NCBI GenBank assembly: GCA_020048645.1
Contig: JAIFMG010000097.1
Location: 1,498 to 65,497, forward strand
Length of the DNA: 64,000 nucleotides
Reading direction: 5' to 3'
DNA from: Bacteroidota bacterium
Lineage (GTDB): Bacteria > Bacteroidota > Bacteroidia > Bacteroidales > UBA6013
Every line of letters begins with the position of its first letter. The stretch's first letter is position 1. Shown here piece after piece: positions 57,919 through 64,000 of this stretch. The position numbers were made by a program, and so were the translations under genes. Under the pieces are notes generated by a model. That model was not told the DNA's origin, did not search any database, and saw only the letters and a list, made by a program, of their open reading frames with translations.

Positions 57919-59014
57919 GTTCTAGGGTGTTGGGGTTGGAAGTGGGGTTGTCTTGCTCATCCACGGCCTCGGCCAGCTCGGCATCCAGAAGCGGGACGCT
58001 GACAGTGAAAAACTCATCGGTATGCTCGACTTTCACCGGCAGTTCCGTGACGAAGGCGTACCGGCTGCGGATGTTCTCGAGGCCGATGCCAGACGAGTAC
58101 TCCTTCTGCTTTTTGAGTTGCAAATTGTTGCGGACGGTGATGTAAAGATCCCCCTCGTTGTAGATTTCGATGTGGAGGTTCTTTTTGCGCGAGACGACAT
58201 TGTGCTTGATGGAGTTCTCTATCAACATTTGCAAGGTCATGGGGGCGATGCGCTTGTCGAGCAGGTGCAGGTCGATGGAGACGCGGAAGCGCACGTTGTG
58301 CTGGAAGCGGGTCTCCTGGATGTAAACATAGGCGTCGATGGCCTCCAGCTCCTGGCTCAGCTTCACCGTGTTGTTCTTCCGCTGGTCCAGGATGTAGCGG
58401 TAGAAGCTCGAAAGCGAGCGCACGAAGTCGCCCGCCAGGTTGGGGTCGGCATGGACCAGCGAGGCCAGGGTGTTCAGGCTGTTGAACAAGAAATGCGGAT
58501 TGACCTGCGACCGCAGCATCTCCAGGTGGAACTCGGCCTTCTCGGTGCGGAAGCGCTCCAGCTCCGCCAGCGAATGCCGCCACCGCTTCATGAAGAACAG
58601 CCCCATATCCATCAGCACGAAGAAAAAAGTCGAGACCACGACATAGGAAGCCGCTATCACCTCATGAAAAAGGACCAGCAGGAAGTTGTCTGCGAACAAG
58701 TACATGTAGCCGACCCGCGCCAGACCAAAAATCGAAACCGAAAGCAGAAGGCTGACCGTCAACTGAAAGGCGATGCGCCGGCGCGGGCCGCCTTCCCAGG
58801 GCATGACCCGGTCCAGCTTCGTGTCGAACTTGCGCAGCAGCTCGCCCACCACAACCACCAGCAAGGCCACCAGAACGTACTTGTGGAGGAACCAGTCGTC
58901 GTAATTCTTGAGCAGCAGCATGAACACCACGTCGAAGCCGCCCTTGAGCGCCAGCCCAGCCATGAAGATGACCAATCTGCGAACCCACTTGTTTTTGAAG
59001 GTAGAGCGGTACAT
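57899..59014 (-). CDS. LytS/YehU-type sensor histidine kinase
   Basis: Four TM helices; SQVNPHFLFNSLN, LQMLIENSIKHN, GIGLENI. Confidence 0.93.
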   Translation of the reverse strand: MYRSTFKNKWVRRLVIFMAGLALKGGFDVVFMLLLKNYDDWFLHKYVLVALLVVVVGELLRKFDTKLDRVMPWEGGPRRRIAFQLTVSLLLSVSIFGLARVGYMYLFADNFLLVLFHEVIAASYVVVSTFFFVLMDMGLFFMKRWRHSLAELERFRTEKAEFHLEMLRSQVNPHFLFNSLNTLASLVHADPNLAGDFVRSLSSFYRYILDQRKNNTVKLSQELEAIDAYVYIQETRFQHNVRFRVSIDLHLLDKRIAPMTLQMLIENSIKHNVVSRKKNLHIEIYNEGDLYITVRNNLQLKKQKEYSSGIGLENIRSRYAFVTELPVKVEHTDEFFTVSVPLLDAELAEAVDEQDNPTSNPNTLEHENTHH

Positions 59015-59101
59015 GACGTTTTTTTACAAAGTTAAGGTTTGCCTGCAAAGTCCCAAAAACCCAAGCAAAAACAACACATTGAATGCTAAAAAGATGAAAA
59101 A

Positions 59102-59133
59102 TTAGGCTTGCCAAAGGAATCTGGCAAGCCTAA
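59102..59133 (-). terminator. Perfect hairpin, likely terminator of the 59182-59796 gene
   Basis: TTAGGCTTGCCA-AAGGAATC-TGGCAAGCCTAA with an A-run on its left. Confidence 0.7.
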
Positions 59134-59181
59134 CAGGTCAAACACGAAACAACAAATCACGGGTAGGGTAGTAAAAAGGGC

Positions 59182-59796
59182 TTATTTCTCAACGTTGGGC
59201 GCCTCGTGGGCGAAGTAGGCCTGGTTGAGCAAATCCCCATTTTGGCGAACCTCGATGGAACAGCTCTGCTCGGCCAGGGCGCTCAGGTCGTAGCCCAAGC
59301 GGTAGTGGGTCTGGCCACGGCCCAAGCGGCGGACGTGCAGCACTTGGCCATCTTGGCTGGTCACGGAAACCGTCACCACTTCGCCCACCGGCTTGCGGAC
59401 CAGCACCTGCGCCAGGTCTTCGCCCGTCGAAAGGATGTTGCTCTGCACCTCGGCCACTTCGATGACATTGTCCAAGCTCTTGGTAATCAGGCTCTCTCCA
59501 ATCAATTCTTGCCCATCGAAAATCTGGTAGGTGTAGTTGCCAGGGCGCAGGTGCGAAAGGTCGAGGCGCAGGCGCAGCTTGGCGCCGGTGCCCACAAGGC
59601 CGCGGTGGACGATGTTGCCGTTCTGGTCGAGCACCAGCAGGCGCAGCTCGGTGGCCGCGGGTTTGACGATGCGCAGGCTGACCTCGTTCTCGGCGCGCTT
59701 CACGAAGCTGGCCTCAATGGCGCTCTGGCCAAAGGAAAAGCTGGACAATCCGGTCAGGAAAAGGAAGGTGGCGAGTGAAAAAATTGACTTTTTCAT
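59182..59796 (-). CDS. Exported protein with two Ig-like (T9SS-CTD/DUF3244-like) repeats
   Basis: Signal peptide SFG-Q; repeats LDQNGNIVH...LDLSHL.PGNY and SQDGQVLH...YDLSAL; TATGTTTG box at 59919-59926. Confidence 0.65.
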   Translation of the reverse strand: MKKSIFSLATFLFLTGLSSFSFGQSAIEASFVKRAENEVSLRIVKPAATELRLLVLDQNGNIVHRGLVGTGAKLRLRLDLSHLRPGNYTYQIFDGQELIGESLITKSLDNVIEVAEVQSNILSTGEDLAQVLVRKPVGEVVTVSVTSQDGQVLHVRRLGRGQTHYRLGYDLSALAEQSCSIEVRQNGDLLNQAYFAHEAPNVEK

Positions 59797-60161
59797 GGTG
59801 TGTTCTTTTGTTAAGGTGAAAAATGCAAGGCCGCTCTTGCCGAAGGGCTGGCGCGCCTTTTCTGTCTTTTAAGTTCTCGGGGCGCCCCCTCGGGCAGTCC
59901 CATCGTTTGAACTTGATGCAAACATAGGCCGGATTGCCCCCGCCCCAAAGCCAATTCCTGCCAAACGCGCTTTCCGCCGGGCCAGTTGTCAATGCTCGGC
60001 CGTGAACCGACGATCCGCCGCCTTAGGCAAGCCCGAGCGCAAACGATTGATAAACAAGCGGTTCAAATCTAAGCCTAGCACCCTTGGCCCCTCTCGCCCG
60101 ACGATGGGCTCATGCCCACGAAAAAAAAATCACTTTTTTTGAAAAAAAATCGCTCCCCCTA

Positions 60162-60190
60162 TTGACTTTCTCATAAATACTTCTTATCTT
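60162..60190 (+). promoter_or_regulatory. Promoter TTGACT-N17-TATCTT with upstream A/T tracts
   Basis: TTGACT at 60162-60167, TATCTT(G) at 60185-60190, A/T tracts at 60121-60150. Confidence 0.6.
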
Positions 60191-60196
60191 GCTTGT

Positions 60197-60474
60197 GATT
60201 TCAGTTTGAACCTCCGCTCTACCGAAACTTGTCAAGGTTTTTTTGTCAGAGACTTCAGTGCCCTTCTTAGTTTTCTTACCTTTTGGTTTTGAGAATTTCG
60301 CTTTTTGGTCCGCTTTTGTTTCTAGTCAAGTACCTTTTTTGTCAGATTACGTCTTTTCTCAAGGTCTTTTTCTCGAAGTGTCTTAGTCCTTGTCCTGAAA
60401 GACGGAGGTTGTCATCAAGTTTTCGGTTCAACTTTTTTCCGCACCCGCGCCCCCACCGGCGCGGGTGTTTTCTT
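60197..60474 (+). ncRNA. Candidate structured non-coding RNA or leader upstream of rtcB
   Basis: Bounded by promoter and terminator, no credible ORF, four nested long-range stems, U-rich repeats (see findings). Confidence 0.5.
60442..60474 (+). terminator. Intrinsic terminator 20 nt before rtcB
   Basis: CACCCGCGCC-CCCACC-GGCGCGGGTG followed by TTTTCTT. Confidence 0.8.
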
Positions 60475-60493
60475 GAAATCCCCCTACCAAGCC

Positions 60494-61897
60494 ATGAAGT
60501 CTTCCCAAAAGCTTCGGGAAAAGCACCTGGCCCAGCTCAATTTCCCCAGCGCCAAGACCAGGGCCTTGGCCACCAACCTGGCCAACGCGTTGCCCGCCAC
60601 AGACCTGGCGAGCAAAATCGCCCTCCTGGGCGAGCTGCTGCGCGACCCGGCCCGCTTCATCGAGCACCAGCGCCTGGCGCCATTGGCCAAAGCCTTGCTC
60701 GCCGAAAGCGGCCAAATTCTTGATTCCCAAGAAATTGAACTGGGAAGCCCCCTACCCTTCCGCGCTTTCGGCCGCCAGCATATCCAGCAGGCGGCCTTTG
60801 AGCAGATGCGCGAAGCCATGCGCCTGCCCGTCGCGAAGGCGGGCGCCCTGATGCCCGACGCGCACGTCGGATACGGCTTGCCCATCGGCGGCGTCCTGGC
60901 GACTTCGGGCGTCGTCATCCCCTATGCCGTTGGCGTTGACATTGGGTGTAGGATGCACCTGTCGCTGTTTGAGCTTCCCGCCAACCACATTTCCAGACAC
61001 AAGCAGCAGCTCGCGCGCATCTTGCAAGACAACACCCGCTTCGGCCTGGAGGGCGAGTTCGACAAGCCGTTCGACGACCCAGTGCTCGAAAGCGCTCTCT
61101 TTCAAGAGCTTCCCATCCTGAAGAAGCACCACAAGAAAGCCGCGCGGCAAATCGGCAGCTCCGGCTCGGGCAACCACTTCGTCGAGTTCGGGAATGTCCA
61201 CCTGGTCGAAAGCCCGCACCTGCCGGGGCTGGCGGCGGGGCAATACGTGGGCCTGCTCTCGCACTCCGGCTCTAGGGGCCTGGGAGCCAGCATCGCCCAG
61301 CACTTCACCAGCCTCGCGGCCCAGCTCGTGGCCCTGCCGAAGGCGGCGCGGCACCTGGCCTGGCTGGCCCTGGACAGCGAAGAGGGCCAGATGTACTGGC
61401 AGGCCATGCGCCTAGCGGGCGACTACGCGCAGGCCAACCACCAGCACATCCACCGCCGCATTGCCAAGGCACTGGGCATCAAGCCTTTGGCCACTATCGA
61501 AAACCACCACAACTTCGCCTGGCTCGAACAGCACGGCGGGCAGGAGCTCGTGGTCCACCGCAAGGGCGCCACGCCGGCGGGCAAGGGAACGCTGGGCATC
61601 ATCCCCGGCTCCATGTCCACGCCCGCCTACCTGGTGGCGGGCAAAGGCCACCCGGACTCGCTGGACTCGGCCTCGCACGGGGCAGGACGGCTGATGTCGC
61701 GGGCGGACGCGAAGGCGCGCATGGCCCCGGCCGTCCTGCGCCAGGAGCTCGAGCAGGCGGGCGTCGTGCTGCTGGGCGGCGGCACCGACGAAGGCCCGCA
61801 CGCCTACAAGGACATCCGCGCGGTGATGCAGGCGCAGGACGAGCTGGTCGAGATACTGGGCACCTTCCAGCCTCGGATCGTGCGCATGGACGGCTAA
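60494..61897 (+). CDS. rtcB: RtcB-family RNA ligase
   Basis: MPDAHVGYGLPIGG, VGVDIGC, GSGNHF, HSGSRG, HHNFA, HRKGAT, PGSM, SHGAGR, AYK. Confidence 0.95.
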   Translation: MKSSQKLREKHLAQLNFPSAKTRALATNLANALPATDLASKIALLGELLRDPARFIEHQRLAPLAKALLAESGQILDSQEIELGSPLPFRAFGRQHIQQAAFEQMREAMRLPVAKAGALMPDAHVGYGLPIGGVLATSGVVIPYAVGVDIGCRMHLSLFELPANHISRHKQQLARILQDNTRFGLEGEFDKPFDDPVLESALFQELPILKKHHKKAARQIGSSGSGNHFVEFGNVHLVESPHLPGLAAGQYVGLLSHSGSRGLGASIAQHFTSLAAQLVALPKAARHLAWLALDSEEGQMYWQAMRLAGDYAQANHQHIHRRIAKALGIKPLATIENHHNFAWLEQHGGQELVVHRKGATPAGKGTLGIIPGSMSTPAYLVAGKGHPDSLDSASHGAGRLMSRADAKARMAPAVLRQELEQAGVVLLGGGTDEGPHAYKDIRAVMQAQDELVEILGTFQPRIVRMDG

Positions 61898-61908: not shown

Positions 61909-62325
61909 TCAGCCTTCTTCGGGCGTGAAGACGTAGAGCGCGCGGATGGGCATCTCCTCCTCGACCCAAGCCTCCCCCGGCTCGGCGTCAGAAAGCTCGA
62001 AGCAGAAGCCCTCGCGGCCGGCGATTTGGTAGCAATCCCAATCGGAGCTCCAGTCGCCGAAGTGGGCGCGCACGTCCTCCAGGGTCGAACCGAGTCCGAT
62101 CTTGCCTTCGAGCTTGCCCTGGAAACCGCCTTCGGCGCCGATCTGCATGAGCGTCTGGCTCGGCTCGTCGATCCAAAACTTGAAATCGCCCTTGGCCAGC
62201 ACGTAGAAGCCTTCGAGGTCGGCCCGCTCGTCGTACTGCCCGATGCGCTCCAACAAAACAGAAACAGGCCAGCCGAGCTGGAAGCCCGCGAGCGATTGGC
62301 CAATGAGGATGCTGTCGTCAGTCAT
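61909..62325 (-). CDS. Hypothetical acidic protein (138 aa)
   Basis: ATG ORF with coding-like codon usage, 70 nt downstream of the res gene. Confidence 0.6.
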   Translation of the reverse strand: MTDDSILIGQSLAGFQLGWPVSVLLERIGQYDERADLEGFYVLAKGDFKFWIDEPSQTLMQIGAEGGFQGKLEGKIGLGSTLEDVRAHFGDWSSDWDCYQIAGREGFCFELSDAEPGEAWVEEEMPIRALYVFTPEEG

Positions 62326-62395
62326 GGGGTGGTGGTTGTTGTGAAGATCGATTCGCAAAAGCATGGACCCTAGCAAAAGCGCGATGGGCGATCAT

Positions 62396-64000
62396 TCAAC
62401 CTTCGTGAATTTGCTTGATCAAATCGAGAATTTTGGTGTGGGAGAACTGCGTCTTGAATTCGATTTTCAGTTTTCCGTTGAAGAATTGCTCGGCATGTTT
62501 GATTTTGAAGCGTTCTTCATCGCGAAGCCCATCCTTGCTGTTCACATCTTTGGTCTCGACGATGAAATGCAGCTTCTGCCCACCATCCCTGAATTTCAAG
62601 ACGTAGGCGAAATCCGGCGAATAGGACTTTCCACCCGCGACGGGAATCCTGATCGAGCTTTTGGGAATCTTGGTGAACACGATAACTTCCTCAATTTCTG
62701 CCTTGATGTTGGCCCTTTCCAGATCCGAATCGTAGTACAATCCTTCCAACAAATAGGATTTCGCGACTTCTTCTTCTGAAAACAGAACACCAATATCCGA
62801 AGAAGAAATTTCATTCAGCACATTTCCTTCGCCGTTCGTGAGTTTGGTGGGATGAATTTGGTTAGAAACATTCTTGTACTCGATCGTGAACCTGTCGATC
62901 GCGTTGGCCATGAGAAAATGGTCGAATTCCTGTTTGATCACCCGAAGTGTCGCCTGGTTCAAATGCCGGTTGATGTCTATTCCCGCATCCCCAATGGCTT
63001 GATGGGCACTTACCATGTTGATGCTCAAGATTGTAGAAAGCTGCTTCAGAAATTCGCTGTATTTCAATGTCGTGATCGCCGCGGTCTTGCGGTTGTAGAT
63101 CGATTCCGTCTCACTGACAAAGGCCTGCTGGCTGTTGAACTCAATCTTGGAGATCCTTTCGTTGATTTGCTCCTGGGCGAAGTTGTTTTTTTGGGATTTG
63201 AGAAACTCCGCGAACAAATTTTGAAACTTCACCTCGTTTTCAAACTTGTACTCGAGGATGACTTTCTCGTTGAGCTTTTCCCAGAGCTGTTGTAGTTCCT
63301 GGTATTTTTCGGTCCGGACAAGAATTTTCTTCTTGGGATCGCTTGCTTTGCGAACTTTGTTCGAATGGACACCTTCAAAAATCAGCGGGAAGAGCTCTTT
63401 GACACGGGCTAAGCCTCCTTCTTGGAAGCTATTGTCCCTTTCGATAATCTCCTTGTTGTCCAAAAAACGCAAAAGTTCTTTTTCGTTTGTAAATTGTTCC
63501 GGATATTTTTGAAGAATGATTTTCTTTAACGGTTCGATGCTGTCGTAGTTCGCTTCCACGGAAACCGATCCCGATTTCTCATTGATTTCTTGGACCAACT
63601 TGTCCACAAAGTCGTTCTCTGTAAAATCGACAAAGTAGTTCAGGTAGAACTGCTCACCTTTGACGCGGTTTCCGTACTCGTTGACGGGCAAACGCAAGCC
63701 GCGGCCAACTTCCTGCAATTTCGAGATTTCACTGCCACTGCTCCGCAGTTTGCAAATCTGGAACACATTCGGATTGTCCCAGCCCTCGCGCAAAGTCCAT
63801 TTCGAGAAAATGAAACGCCGGGGGTTTTCCAAATCGAGCATGGACTGTTTGTCGTGCAAGATCTCATTGATCTCTTTTTCAATGGCTTCATCCTTTTCGG
63901 TATTGTCCTTTGAAAAGTATCCGGCGTGCGTCGCGGAAAGGTCAACCAATGTTTTTTCCAGGTATGCCTTGAATGCTTTGTGCTTGTCAAGGTTCTCGAC
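62396..64000 (-). CDS. res: Type III restriction-modification Res subunit, C-terminal part (5' truncated by the window)
   Basis: RFIFSKWTLREGWDNPNVFQIC, QEVGRGLRL, PD-(D/E)xK nuclease YSPDF...IVETK; frame open to the window edge; AT-rich. Confidence 0.92.
   Translation of the reverse strand, partial: VENLDKHKAFKAYLEKTLVDLSATHAGYFSKDNTEKDEAIEKEINEILHDKQSMLDLENPRRFIFSKWTLREGWDNPNVFQICKLRSSGSEISKLQEVGRGLRLPVNEYGNRVKGEQFYLNYFVDFTENDFVDKLVQEINEKSGSVSVEANYDSIEPLKKIILQKYPEQFTNEKELLRFLDNKEIIERDNSFQEGGLARVKELFPLIFEGVHSNKVRKASDPKKKILVRTEKYQELQQLWEKLNEKVILEYKFENEVKFQNLFAEFLKSQKNNFAQEQINERISKIEFNSQQAFVSETESIYNRKTAAITTLKYSEFLKQLSTILSINMVSAHQAIGDAGIDINRHLNQATLRVIKQEFDHFLMANAIDRFTIEYKNVSNQIHPTKLTNGEGNVLNEISSSDIGVLFSEEEVAKSYLLEGLYYDSDLERANIKAEIEEVIVFTKIPKSSIRIPVAGGKSYSPDFAYVLKFRDGGQKLHFIVETKDVNSKDGLRDEERFKIKHAEQFFNGKLKIEFKTQFSHTKILDLIKQIHEG

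Follow-up and report, generated by a model that had tools for sequence, protein, structure and literature searches.

Small RNAs that end at a terminator and double as the leader of the gene downstream form a recognized class, the sRNA-mRNA tandem units, whose second gene is reached by terminator read-through. The control of RtcB and its RNA partners in bacteria outside the Proteobacteria are largely unknown. The Salmonella operon is arranged as rsr-yrlBA-rtcBA (Hughes et al. 2020, PMC7790460), and Chen et al. (2014, PMC4201824) give Y RNAs a length of 80-130 nt and a long stem with a Ro60 site, whose motif is GNCGAAN0-1G. Loci of the Hymenobacter type have rsr (TROVE) and arrays of YrlA-type modules ahead of the gene for the orthologous RtcB. 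Our study concerns the rtcB locus of a Bacteroidota bacterium (assembly GCA_020048645.1), analysed within a stretch of 64,000 nucleotides that we call the window. Directly upstream of this rtcB lies a U-rich stretch of about 280 nt that is probably transcribed as a small RNA, from a promoter like those of tRNA genes and up to a terminator of its own. In the reading that we prefer, to which we give somewhat less than even weight, it is a small RNA specific to this lineage, and its terminator also serves as a gate for rtcB.

The host genome (4.8 Mb, 60.4% GC, 92% complete) is the sole one of its family in the genome collection searched. Its rtcB gene occupies 60494..61897 on the plus strand and encodes 467 aa (Pfam RtcB, 5.5e-85), with homologues aligning from residue 1-7. 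An intergenic region of 697 bp is bordered on the left by a divergent gene at 59182..59796 on the minus strand, whose 204-aa product has a signal-peptide-like N-terminus and no family in the Pfam search; the GC3 of this gene is 0.81 in the minus frame vs 0.64 in the plus frame. Since rtcB lies between one divergent and one convergent gene, it has no other operon partner. Boxes of the type TAnnTTTG are present on the minus strand at 59919-59926 and 60064-60071, and none occurs on the plus strand of 59800-60493.

A promoter of sequence TTGACT-N17-TATCTT at 60162-60190, described in the earlier note, was recovered as the sole sigma-70-like site in 59700-60600, where shuffled sequences hold 0.3 +/- 0.7 such sites against the one real; no second site that could be rtcB's own promoter was found in this interval. 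The core promoter (60162..60192, plus strand) combines a -33/-35 element TTG(ACT) at 60162-60167 with an imperfect -7/-10 box at 60185-60192, which lacks one T of the TAnnTTTG found at the tRNA promoters of the genome. Ahead of it, at 60121..60149 on the same strand, stands an UP-like module of an A-run, a T-run and an A-run that also precedes the host's tRNA promoters; in same-order genomes, nine loci matched with near-identical A/T-run modules, and in three of these the module lies upstream of a tRNA gene. We searched both strands of the genome for the composite pattern (the module, then TTG, N17-22 and a TAnnT(T)TG-like box) and obtained 10 sites in 4.8 Mb: five tRNA genes, rpmE (ribosomal protein L31), whose promoter has an UP-like module and a -33/-7 layout like those of the U-rich RNA, three sites in AT-rich islands, and the site of the U-rich RNA itself. 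Judged by this tRNA/rpmE layout, the promoter call is stronger than in the first reading. The same count bears on the explanation that the stretch has no dedicated function, being an AT-rich spacer with a chance promoter and hairpin, and that its RNA is pervasive or spurious transcription. We consider this explanation unlikely: only 10 genome sites carry the composite promoter, six of the other nine drive tRNA or ribosomal protein genes, and rtcB would otherwise have no promoter at all.

The predicted RNA extends from 60197 to 60474 on the plus strand (about 278 nt), its start being set by the promoter geometry and its end by the tail of an intrinsic terminator at 60441..60474 on this strand. 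The terminator stem (60441-60468) has 11 bp, nine of them G-C, and a 6-nt loop; its T-rich tail ends at 60474, and the ATG of rtcB follows 20 nt later at 60494, in agreement with the earlier call of a strong terminator directly before this start codon. The reverse strand of the hairpin has no T tail. In the ensemble of 60197-60475, the terminator pairs have probabilities of 0.92-1.00 and no competing antiterminator pairing was found. A riboswitch or RNA-structure attenuator was rejected on the strength of the same terminator probabilities, the lack of mutually exclusive folds and the lack of any Rfam cis-regulatory family.

This arrangement could also be that of a purely cis-acting 5' leader of rtcB, in which the terminator would be a regulated attenuator and the short RNA only a by-product; a protein, or a stalled or slowed RNA polymerase, would then override the terminator under RNA-damage stress. 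The position of the terminator 20 nt before the ATG, with no other promoter serving rtcB, is what such a leader would show. An AUG-free leader also suits a 5' UTR: 60197-60440 (244 nt) holds no ATG where 3.3 are expected, and only 124 of 5000 shuffles hold none. In addition, Flavobacterium-type rtcB loci have a terminator-ended upstream unit as well. Against this explanation are the strongly paired terminator with no antiterminator, a promoter of the constitutive tRNA/ribosomal protein type, and an RNA contig, presented below, that stops at the terminator and has nothing on rtcB. The attenuating leader suggested earlier keeps its place as a doubtful alternative, but the antiterminator that attenuation by RNA structure would use was not found.

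At the RNA level, a metatranscriptome contig of 219 nt (run X6, record 13; strand not readable) matches 60224..60442 without a single difference. Its left end lies 27 nt downstream of the predicted start and its right end 32 nt short of the predicted end, and the same run has no cover on 59600-60223 (624 nt) or on 60443-61200 (758 nt), the latter taking in the first 707 nt of rtcB. The DNA runs X3-X5 have the identical sequence at the locus, and the RNA shows no variants. This support consists of one contig with a k-mer depth of 2.4 from one run, and contigs give neither strand nor true ends; they are also poorly suited to show joints or back-splice forms, none of which was seen in them. A single low-depth contig is what spurious transcription might leave, but its ends lie symmetrically inside the promoter-terminator unit and its flanks are silent, both of which argue against that explanation.

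The composition of the body sets it apart from the GC-rich genome, as had been noted before: 60224-60440 has 45% T and 17% A, with a GC content of 0.375-0.39 and an AT skew of -0.475. In the whole genome, 188 of 47,757 segments of 200 nt reach 45% T or A, and 30 short one-strand T-rich islets lie between GC-rich flanks; the 12 islets inspected are simple repeats, coding repeats or AT-rich intergenic regions. These 30 or so similar islets favour an absence of function, and the strand-specific asymmetry of T over A, 45% to 17%, speaks against it. BLAST and nhmmer searches for extra copies in the host genome matched only the locus itself, and six-frame translation of the region found no gene remnant. 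Within the region, the spacing of T-tracts has a weak periodicity of 16 and 32 nt, not of 10.5 bp; the internal direct repeats are short (12-19 nt, two copies each); and TTGTC occurs five times, which by our estimate is not significant across all 5-mers.

The statement that no credible ORF lies between promoter and terminator also holds, the sole ORF being a 47-codon TTG frame at 60243-60386. This frame could encode a small Phe-rich peptide or leader peptide, with 42 codons if it began at the in-frame GTG at 60258. The frame is open, its G content by codon position is 0.28, 0.07 and 0.22 (enriched at the first position, depleted at the second), and Flavobacterium-type rtcB loci have a conserved ORF of 24-29 codons followed by a terminator. 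We nevertheless regard a peptide as very improbable: the frame has no ATG, its GC3 is 0.33 vs 0.81-0.88 in the neighbouring genes, an open frame of 47 codons is by our estimate unremarkable at 45% T, tblastn against the fetched loci and the genome found no relative (best E-value 0.2), and richness in Phe is common to any frame of T-rich DNA. The low GC3, the ATG-free 244 nt and the lack of a relative of the peptide agree with a non-coding reading, and the stretch has what an independent small RNA gene would have: its own promoter, its own intrinsic terminator and no ORF.

The earlier note had further proposed that four nested long-range stems fold the RNA into a rod. Complementary segments do exist where these stems were placed, but a structure beyond chance was not confirmed for them. 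First, without the terminator (60197-60438) the body has a minimum free energy (MFE) of -51.9 kcal/mol vs -46.9 +/- 4.2 for shuffles (z -1.20), an MFE that 23 of 200 shuffles also reach; a z of -4.04 arises because the terminator hairpin was included. Second, every base pair of the proposed stems has a probability of 0.00 in the ensemble, and a fold forced to hold them reaches -58.0 kcal/mol vs an MFE of -76.0 kcal/mol. Third, the duplex of the 5' and 3' ends scores -16.6 vs -11.6 +/- 3.8 for shuffles, 110 of 1000 of which equal it. In these models, the U-rich RNA folds no better than its shuffles and would have no detectable stable fold apart from the terminator. A fold at chance level counts in favour of an absence of function; under the preferred reading of a small RNA, a weakly structured U-rich body would fit an RNA that binds protein or pairs with other RNAs better than a ribozyme-like or riboswitch-like one.

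The RNA matches no Rfam family: nothing reached the gathering score across the whole window, and at E<=10 the region 59800-60600 gave only terminator-driven or low-complexity matches of 14-20 bits, far below the cut-offs. In 60 same-order genomes, the search for homologues yielded nothing beyond the A/T-run promoter module. In 400 same-order genomes, low-complexity matches of 22-47 nt were found in 11 (E 8e-4 to 1e-2); all of them are to U-rich segments, and we read them as chance matches. The 185 other rtcB and relative loci held no homologue. When rtcB upstream regions were compared with one another by BLAST, the U-rich RNA had no match, and nhmmer at E<=100 found no homologue in 1.05 Mb of loci, mostly around rtcB genes. 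Viral contigs held no exact 21-mer, and distant blastn found no homologue in phages and plasmids. Since no homologue was found in the collections searched, there is neither conservation nor covariation to report, and because the nearest RtcB relatives in the genome and metagenome collections are only 50-60% identical, no near kin are at hand for covariation. The lack of conservation in these collections counts for the explanation without function. In the parts available of the literature on rtcB with Y RNA or YrlA, on Bacteroidetes and on B. thetaiotaomicron small RNAs, such an RNA is not described.

The suggestion that the RNA is Y-RNA-like does not survive these comparisons, and identity with Y RNA or YrlA was rejected. 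A search of the 92% complete host genome with PF05731 finds no Ro60/TROVE gene, with positive controls in Deinococcus and B. thetaiotaomicron, and tblastn with the Hymenobacter Ro60 finds none in it either. The Ro-site motif GNCGAAN0-1G and GCCGTAR, the variant of the Hymenobacter modules, are absent from both strands of 60190-60480, and ARAGORN finds no tRNA-like domain with T and D arms in 59000-61000. A covariance model that we built from 18 YrlA-type modules (R1) has no match at the locus and matches only true tRNA genes in the host genome (E>=0.0135); the same model recovers full-length YrlA-type modules in 17 of 170 other rtcB loci, eight of these 17 not having been used in its building. 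The length is also wrong for a Y RNA.

What the locus shares with Y-RNA loci is position, and a Ro-independent partner or substrate of RtcB would be conceivable: a Y-RNA replacement, a sealed or circularised RNA, or a reporter of RNA damage. The RNA occupies the place that YrlA-type arrays take upstream of orthologous rtcB genes (48-58% identity), in a genome without Ro60 and YrlA-type RNAs, and therefore in a slot otherwise empty. Yet no Y RNA feature is present and position is the entire case, and we hold a role of this kind to be quite improbable. A divergent 6S-type RNA is scarcely credible: no 6S RNA is detected otherwise in the genome (RF00013, RF01685) and the stretch has a promoter of the stable-RNA type, but the locus gives no Rfam 6S signal even at E<=10, no stable rod forms, and the RNA would measure about 280 nt. 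RF00013 and RF01685 found nothing in the host genome; the silence of RF01685 says little because no control genome matched it.

Taken together, the promoter class, the terminator, the X6 contig and the lack of an Rfam match uphold the earlier description of an independent, terminated, non-coding unit upstream of rtcB. In the preferred reading, a strong promoter of the stable-RNA type would produce a small non-coding RNA of about 60197-60474 on the plus strand, and an efficient intrinsic terminator would end it 20 nt before rtcB. With no promoter to itself, rtcB would most likely be expressed only by read-through of this terminator, and the unit would therefore be both an abundant free RNA and a gate that holds rtcB at a low basal level. 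The strand, the exact ends, the coupling by read-through and whatever the free RNA may do are what we infer here. A more elaborate possibility, which we consider improbable, is that in this lineage an unrelated, abundant, U-rich RNA has taken the place of the Ro60/Y-RNA module found ahead of orthologous rtcB genes and cooperates with RtcB in the absence of Ro60. It could be a decoy or a sensor: stress ribonucleases would cut the RNA, RtcB would reseal it, and its integrity would set the terminator read-through into rtcB. Should the RNA prove abundant and active in trans, a new RNA tied to RNA repair and independent of Ro would have been found; otherwise it would be a further small RNA or leader, specific to its lineage, in an uncultured organism.

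Compared with the known systems, the unit resembles 6S RNA (RF00013) and 6S-Flavo (RF01685) in being non-coding, a few hundred nt long and preceded by a stable-RNA-like promoter, and differs from them by the lack of a model match and of a stable rod, the 6S fold being an extended rod with a bubble at its centre. Like the YrlA-type Y RNAs, it is a non-coding RNA gene directly upstream of rtcB on the same strand, but it measures about 278 nt vs 80-130 nt, and its body is U-rich and weakly folded, unlike their long stem with a loop. Flavobacterium-type and Sphingobacterium-type rtcB genes are preceded, at 100-300 nt and on their own strand, by a short unit that ends in a terminator; this unit contains a conserved ATG ORF of 24-29 codons in 14 of the 19 loci examined, has no Rfam match and shares no sequence with the U-rich RNA. 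In other Bacteroidota, rtcB orthologues follow Y-RNA arrays or a short ORF with a terminator, and together with the present locus this suggests that the gating of rtcB by a small unit upstream is a design that recurs, with unrelated elements in that role. The sRNA-mRNA tandem units are the class with which this locus shares its layout: it differs from them in that no regulator, ligand, antiterminator or target is found here and read-through is our proposal, and it resembles them in having one promoter, a strong terminator before the start codon, and a gene without a promoter of its own.

The rtcB gene (60494-61897; Pfam RtcB, 5.5e-85) is preceded by an intergenic gap of 697 bp and lies between two minus-strand genes whose strand was assigned by GC3, a divergent one upstream (59182-59796) and a convergent one downstream (61909-62376). 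On the plus strand of this gap, an A-run/T-run/A-run block (60121-60149) precedes the core of the region's only sigma-70-like promoter site (60162-60190); a T-rich stretch of ~245 nt (45% T, 17% A) then leads to a terminator hairpin of 11 bp, 9 of them GC, with its T tail (60441-60474), and the rtcB ATG lies 20 nt past this tail. The coordinates, promoter and terminator proposed in the earlier note are upheld by our analysis. The first ~290 bp of the gap are of ordinary composition: the segment at 59870-60120, which separates the divergent gene from the RNA promoter (~250-290 bp, normal GC), has a fold z of -0.91, holds no ORF with a coding signature and carries two minus-strand TAnnTTTG boxes (59919-59926 and 60064-60071) that may serve the divergent gene. 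Downstream of rtcB, a block of lower GC (62300-64000; 0.41-0.51) holds a minus-strand gene for a 517-aa protein in which Pfam recognises an RE_endonuc domain (6.8e-23); it may be an acquired restriction-type gene.

The source genome (4.8 Mb in 242 contigs, 92% complete, 60.4% GC) is the sole member of its family in the genome collection searched, and the regions upstream of its 51 ARAGORN-called tRNA genes share a recurrent promoter made of A-run/T-run tracts, a TTTGG-like -33 element, ~19 nt and a TAnnTTTG-type box, a layout that we take to be the Bacteroidota promoter consensus. This composite pattern occurs at 10 sites genome-wide on both strands: five before tRNA genes, one before rpmE (L31, confirmed by Pfam, 1.8e-25), three inside AT-rich islands, and one at the window RNA, where the -7 box is one T short of consensus. 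When the first 35 nt of the region 60121-60494 were compared with 60 same-order genomes, the sole matches were to the A-run/T-run promoter module, located just upstream of a tRNA gene in three of nine loci. The module (A-run, short spacer, T-run) recurs at tRNA and rpmE promoters, on source-genome contigs C48 (35327 and 35656), C77, C81, C111 (4198) and C94 (10630) and in the fetched loci L002, L003 and L004, and is nearly identical across several same-order genomes.

In a metatranscriptome run of 38 Mb of contigs (X6), one 219-nt contig maps to 60224-60442 with 0 differences, and no contig of the run falls on 59600-60223 or 60443-61200; these silent flanks argue against DNA carry-over. It is important to consider that this cover is a single contig of depth 2.4 from a single study, and that contigs give neither strand nor true ends; its ends lie 27 nt inside the predicted start of the RNA and 32 nt inside its predicted end, which would fit low k-mer cover close to transcript ends. 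Based on its promoter class and this contig, the predicted RNA is probably transcribed, and the rtcB-linked non-coding unit first suggested from sequence is supported, together with its terminator, as a transcription unit.

GC3, homology and start-codon evidence also agree with the earlier view that the region has no credible ORF, and coding by the RNA is unlikely. The sole internal frame, which opens with TTG and runs for 47 codons, has a GC3 of 0.33 against 0.81-0.88 in neighbouring genes, and neither the source genome nor 1.05 Mb of fetched loci yielded a relative of it (best E-value 0.2). No ATG occurs in 244 nt of the RNA, against 3.3 expected (124 of 5000 shuffles also lacked one), a hint of start-codon avoidance such as is expected of a non-coding RNA or leader. 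All frames around the 47-codon one are Phe-rich, and a Phe-rich peptide or leader peptide is a very improbable product of the unit.

The rod of four nested stems proposed for the RNA fared less well: its complementary segment pairs do exist, but nothing places them beyond chance. Every pair has a probability of 0.00 in the partition function, the best fold holding these stems lies 18 kcal/mol above the MFE, and the MFE fold is a different, Y-shaped one. The fold z of -4.04 for 60195-60480 arises from the terminator; once this is left out (60197-60438), the value is -1.20, a stability that 23 of 200 shuffles also reach, and for the reverse strand it is +0.60. End-to-end pairing, between the first 40 nt and the last 45, was equalled by 110 of 1000 shuffles. 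Because these statistics are at chance, we regard the body of the RNA as weakly structured, and a particular fold would be defensible only with covariation. The most GC-rich complementary pair of the RNA joins CCUCC (60211-60215), a segment resembling the 16S rRNA 3' end, to GGAGG (60404-60408); the pair may be due to chance, a single such 6-mer being expected ~0.03 times by a post hoc estimate. No homologues of the RNA were found in same-order genomes, rtcB loci, phages or plasmids, and the DNA runs containing the locus are identical to the window; since the collections searched hold no family-level relative, their absence counts only weakly against function. A spacer devoid of function and spuriously transcribed would be compatible with such a body, and we regard it as unlikely.

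Among known families, Rfam gave no match to the window RNA. RF00013 (6S) has no match anywhere in the source genome; neither has RF01685, which was also silent in all 14 control genomes, so that the model or the search is possibly insensitive. A 6S role is improbable given that the locus has no stable rod, and a divergent 6S is the remotest of the readings considered. The suggested likeness to Y RNAs fails as well. R1, a covariance model that we built from 18 YrlA-type modules, has no match at the locus and genome-wide touches true tRNA genes only (E at least 0.0135), a regular expression for YrlA-type modules found none, and the GNCGAAN0-1G motif described for Y RNAs by Chen et al. 2014 (PMC4201824) is absent from the RNA. 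No TROVE/Ro60 gene was found in the source genome, which, at 92% completeness, appears to lack a Ro/Y system. The window RNA is not a Y RNA, and a Ro-independent partner or substrate of RtcB is quite improbable.

Other rtcB loci carry different upstream units. The closest relatives of the window RtcB are Bacteroidota proteins, 48-60% identical to it. In Hymenobacter-type loci, a TROVE/Ro60 gene lies 1.1-1.3 kb upstream of the orthologous rtcB, and the gap is filled with repeated modules in which a Ro-site-like stem accompanies a tRNA-like domain. R1 matched at full length in 12 of the 80 loci from genomes and 5 of the 90 from metagenomes or relatives (17 of 170; 8 of the 17 outside its training set), always on the rtcB strand and with up to 9 copies per locus. 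Seven loci hold tandem arrays of 5-9 modules on that strand (L019 257-2918, L034 81-1386, L018 1885-2867, L042 1983-2862, L027 1842-2694, L037 1648-2540 and L080 2115-2862), those of L080 and L027 between the TROVE/Ro60 gene and rtcB; Rfam at its gathering score does not call these arrays, and ARAGORN labels one L080 module 'tRNA-Stop (tta)'. A second unit, unrelated in sequence to the window RNA and matching no Rfam family, is common to 19 Flavobacterium- and Sphingobacterium-type loci, 100-300 nt before rtcB (L051, about 2700-2890; matching stretches in L057, L066, L076, L078, L079, L088, L089, L099, L101, L116, L125, L143, L149 and L151). Our script recovered in 14 of the 19 a conserved ATG ORF of 24-29 codons, with conserved first and last residues, followed by a hairpin and strong terminator in the seven Flavobacterium-type loci aligned; the unit might supply rtcB with a leader or arrest peptide. 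Two of five such genomes checked have TROVE elsewhere.

For the window unit, our tentatively preferred reading is that it gives rise to a small, abundant RNA that stops at the terminator, and that rtcB is transcribed only via read-through. A tRNA-grade promoter ahead of a strong terminator would give low basal rtcB, any condition weakening termination would raise it, and the U-rich RNA might act in trans. The unit is without an antiterminator, and we consider a purely cis-acting attenuator unlikely. Genes of one RtcB subfamily are preceded by short same-strand units of three unrelated kinds, namely Y-RNA arrays, the short-ORF unit and the window RNA, and the last is best filed as an orphan newcomer to a broad class, the bacterial small RNAs or leaders that end in a terminator.
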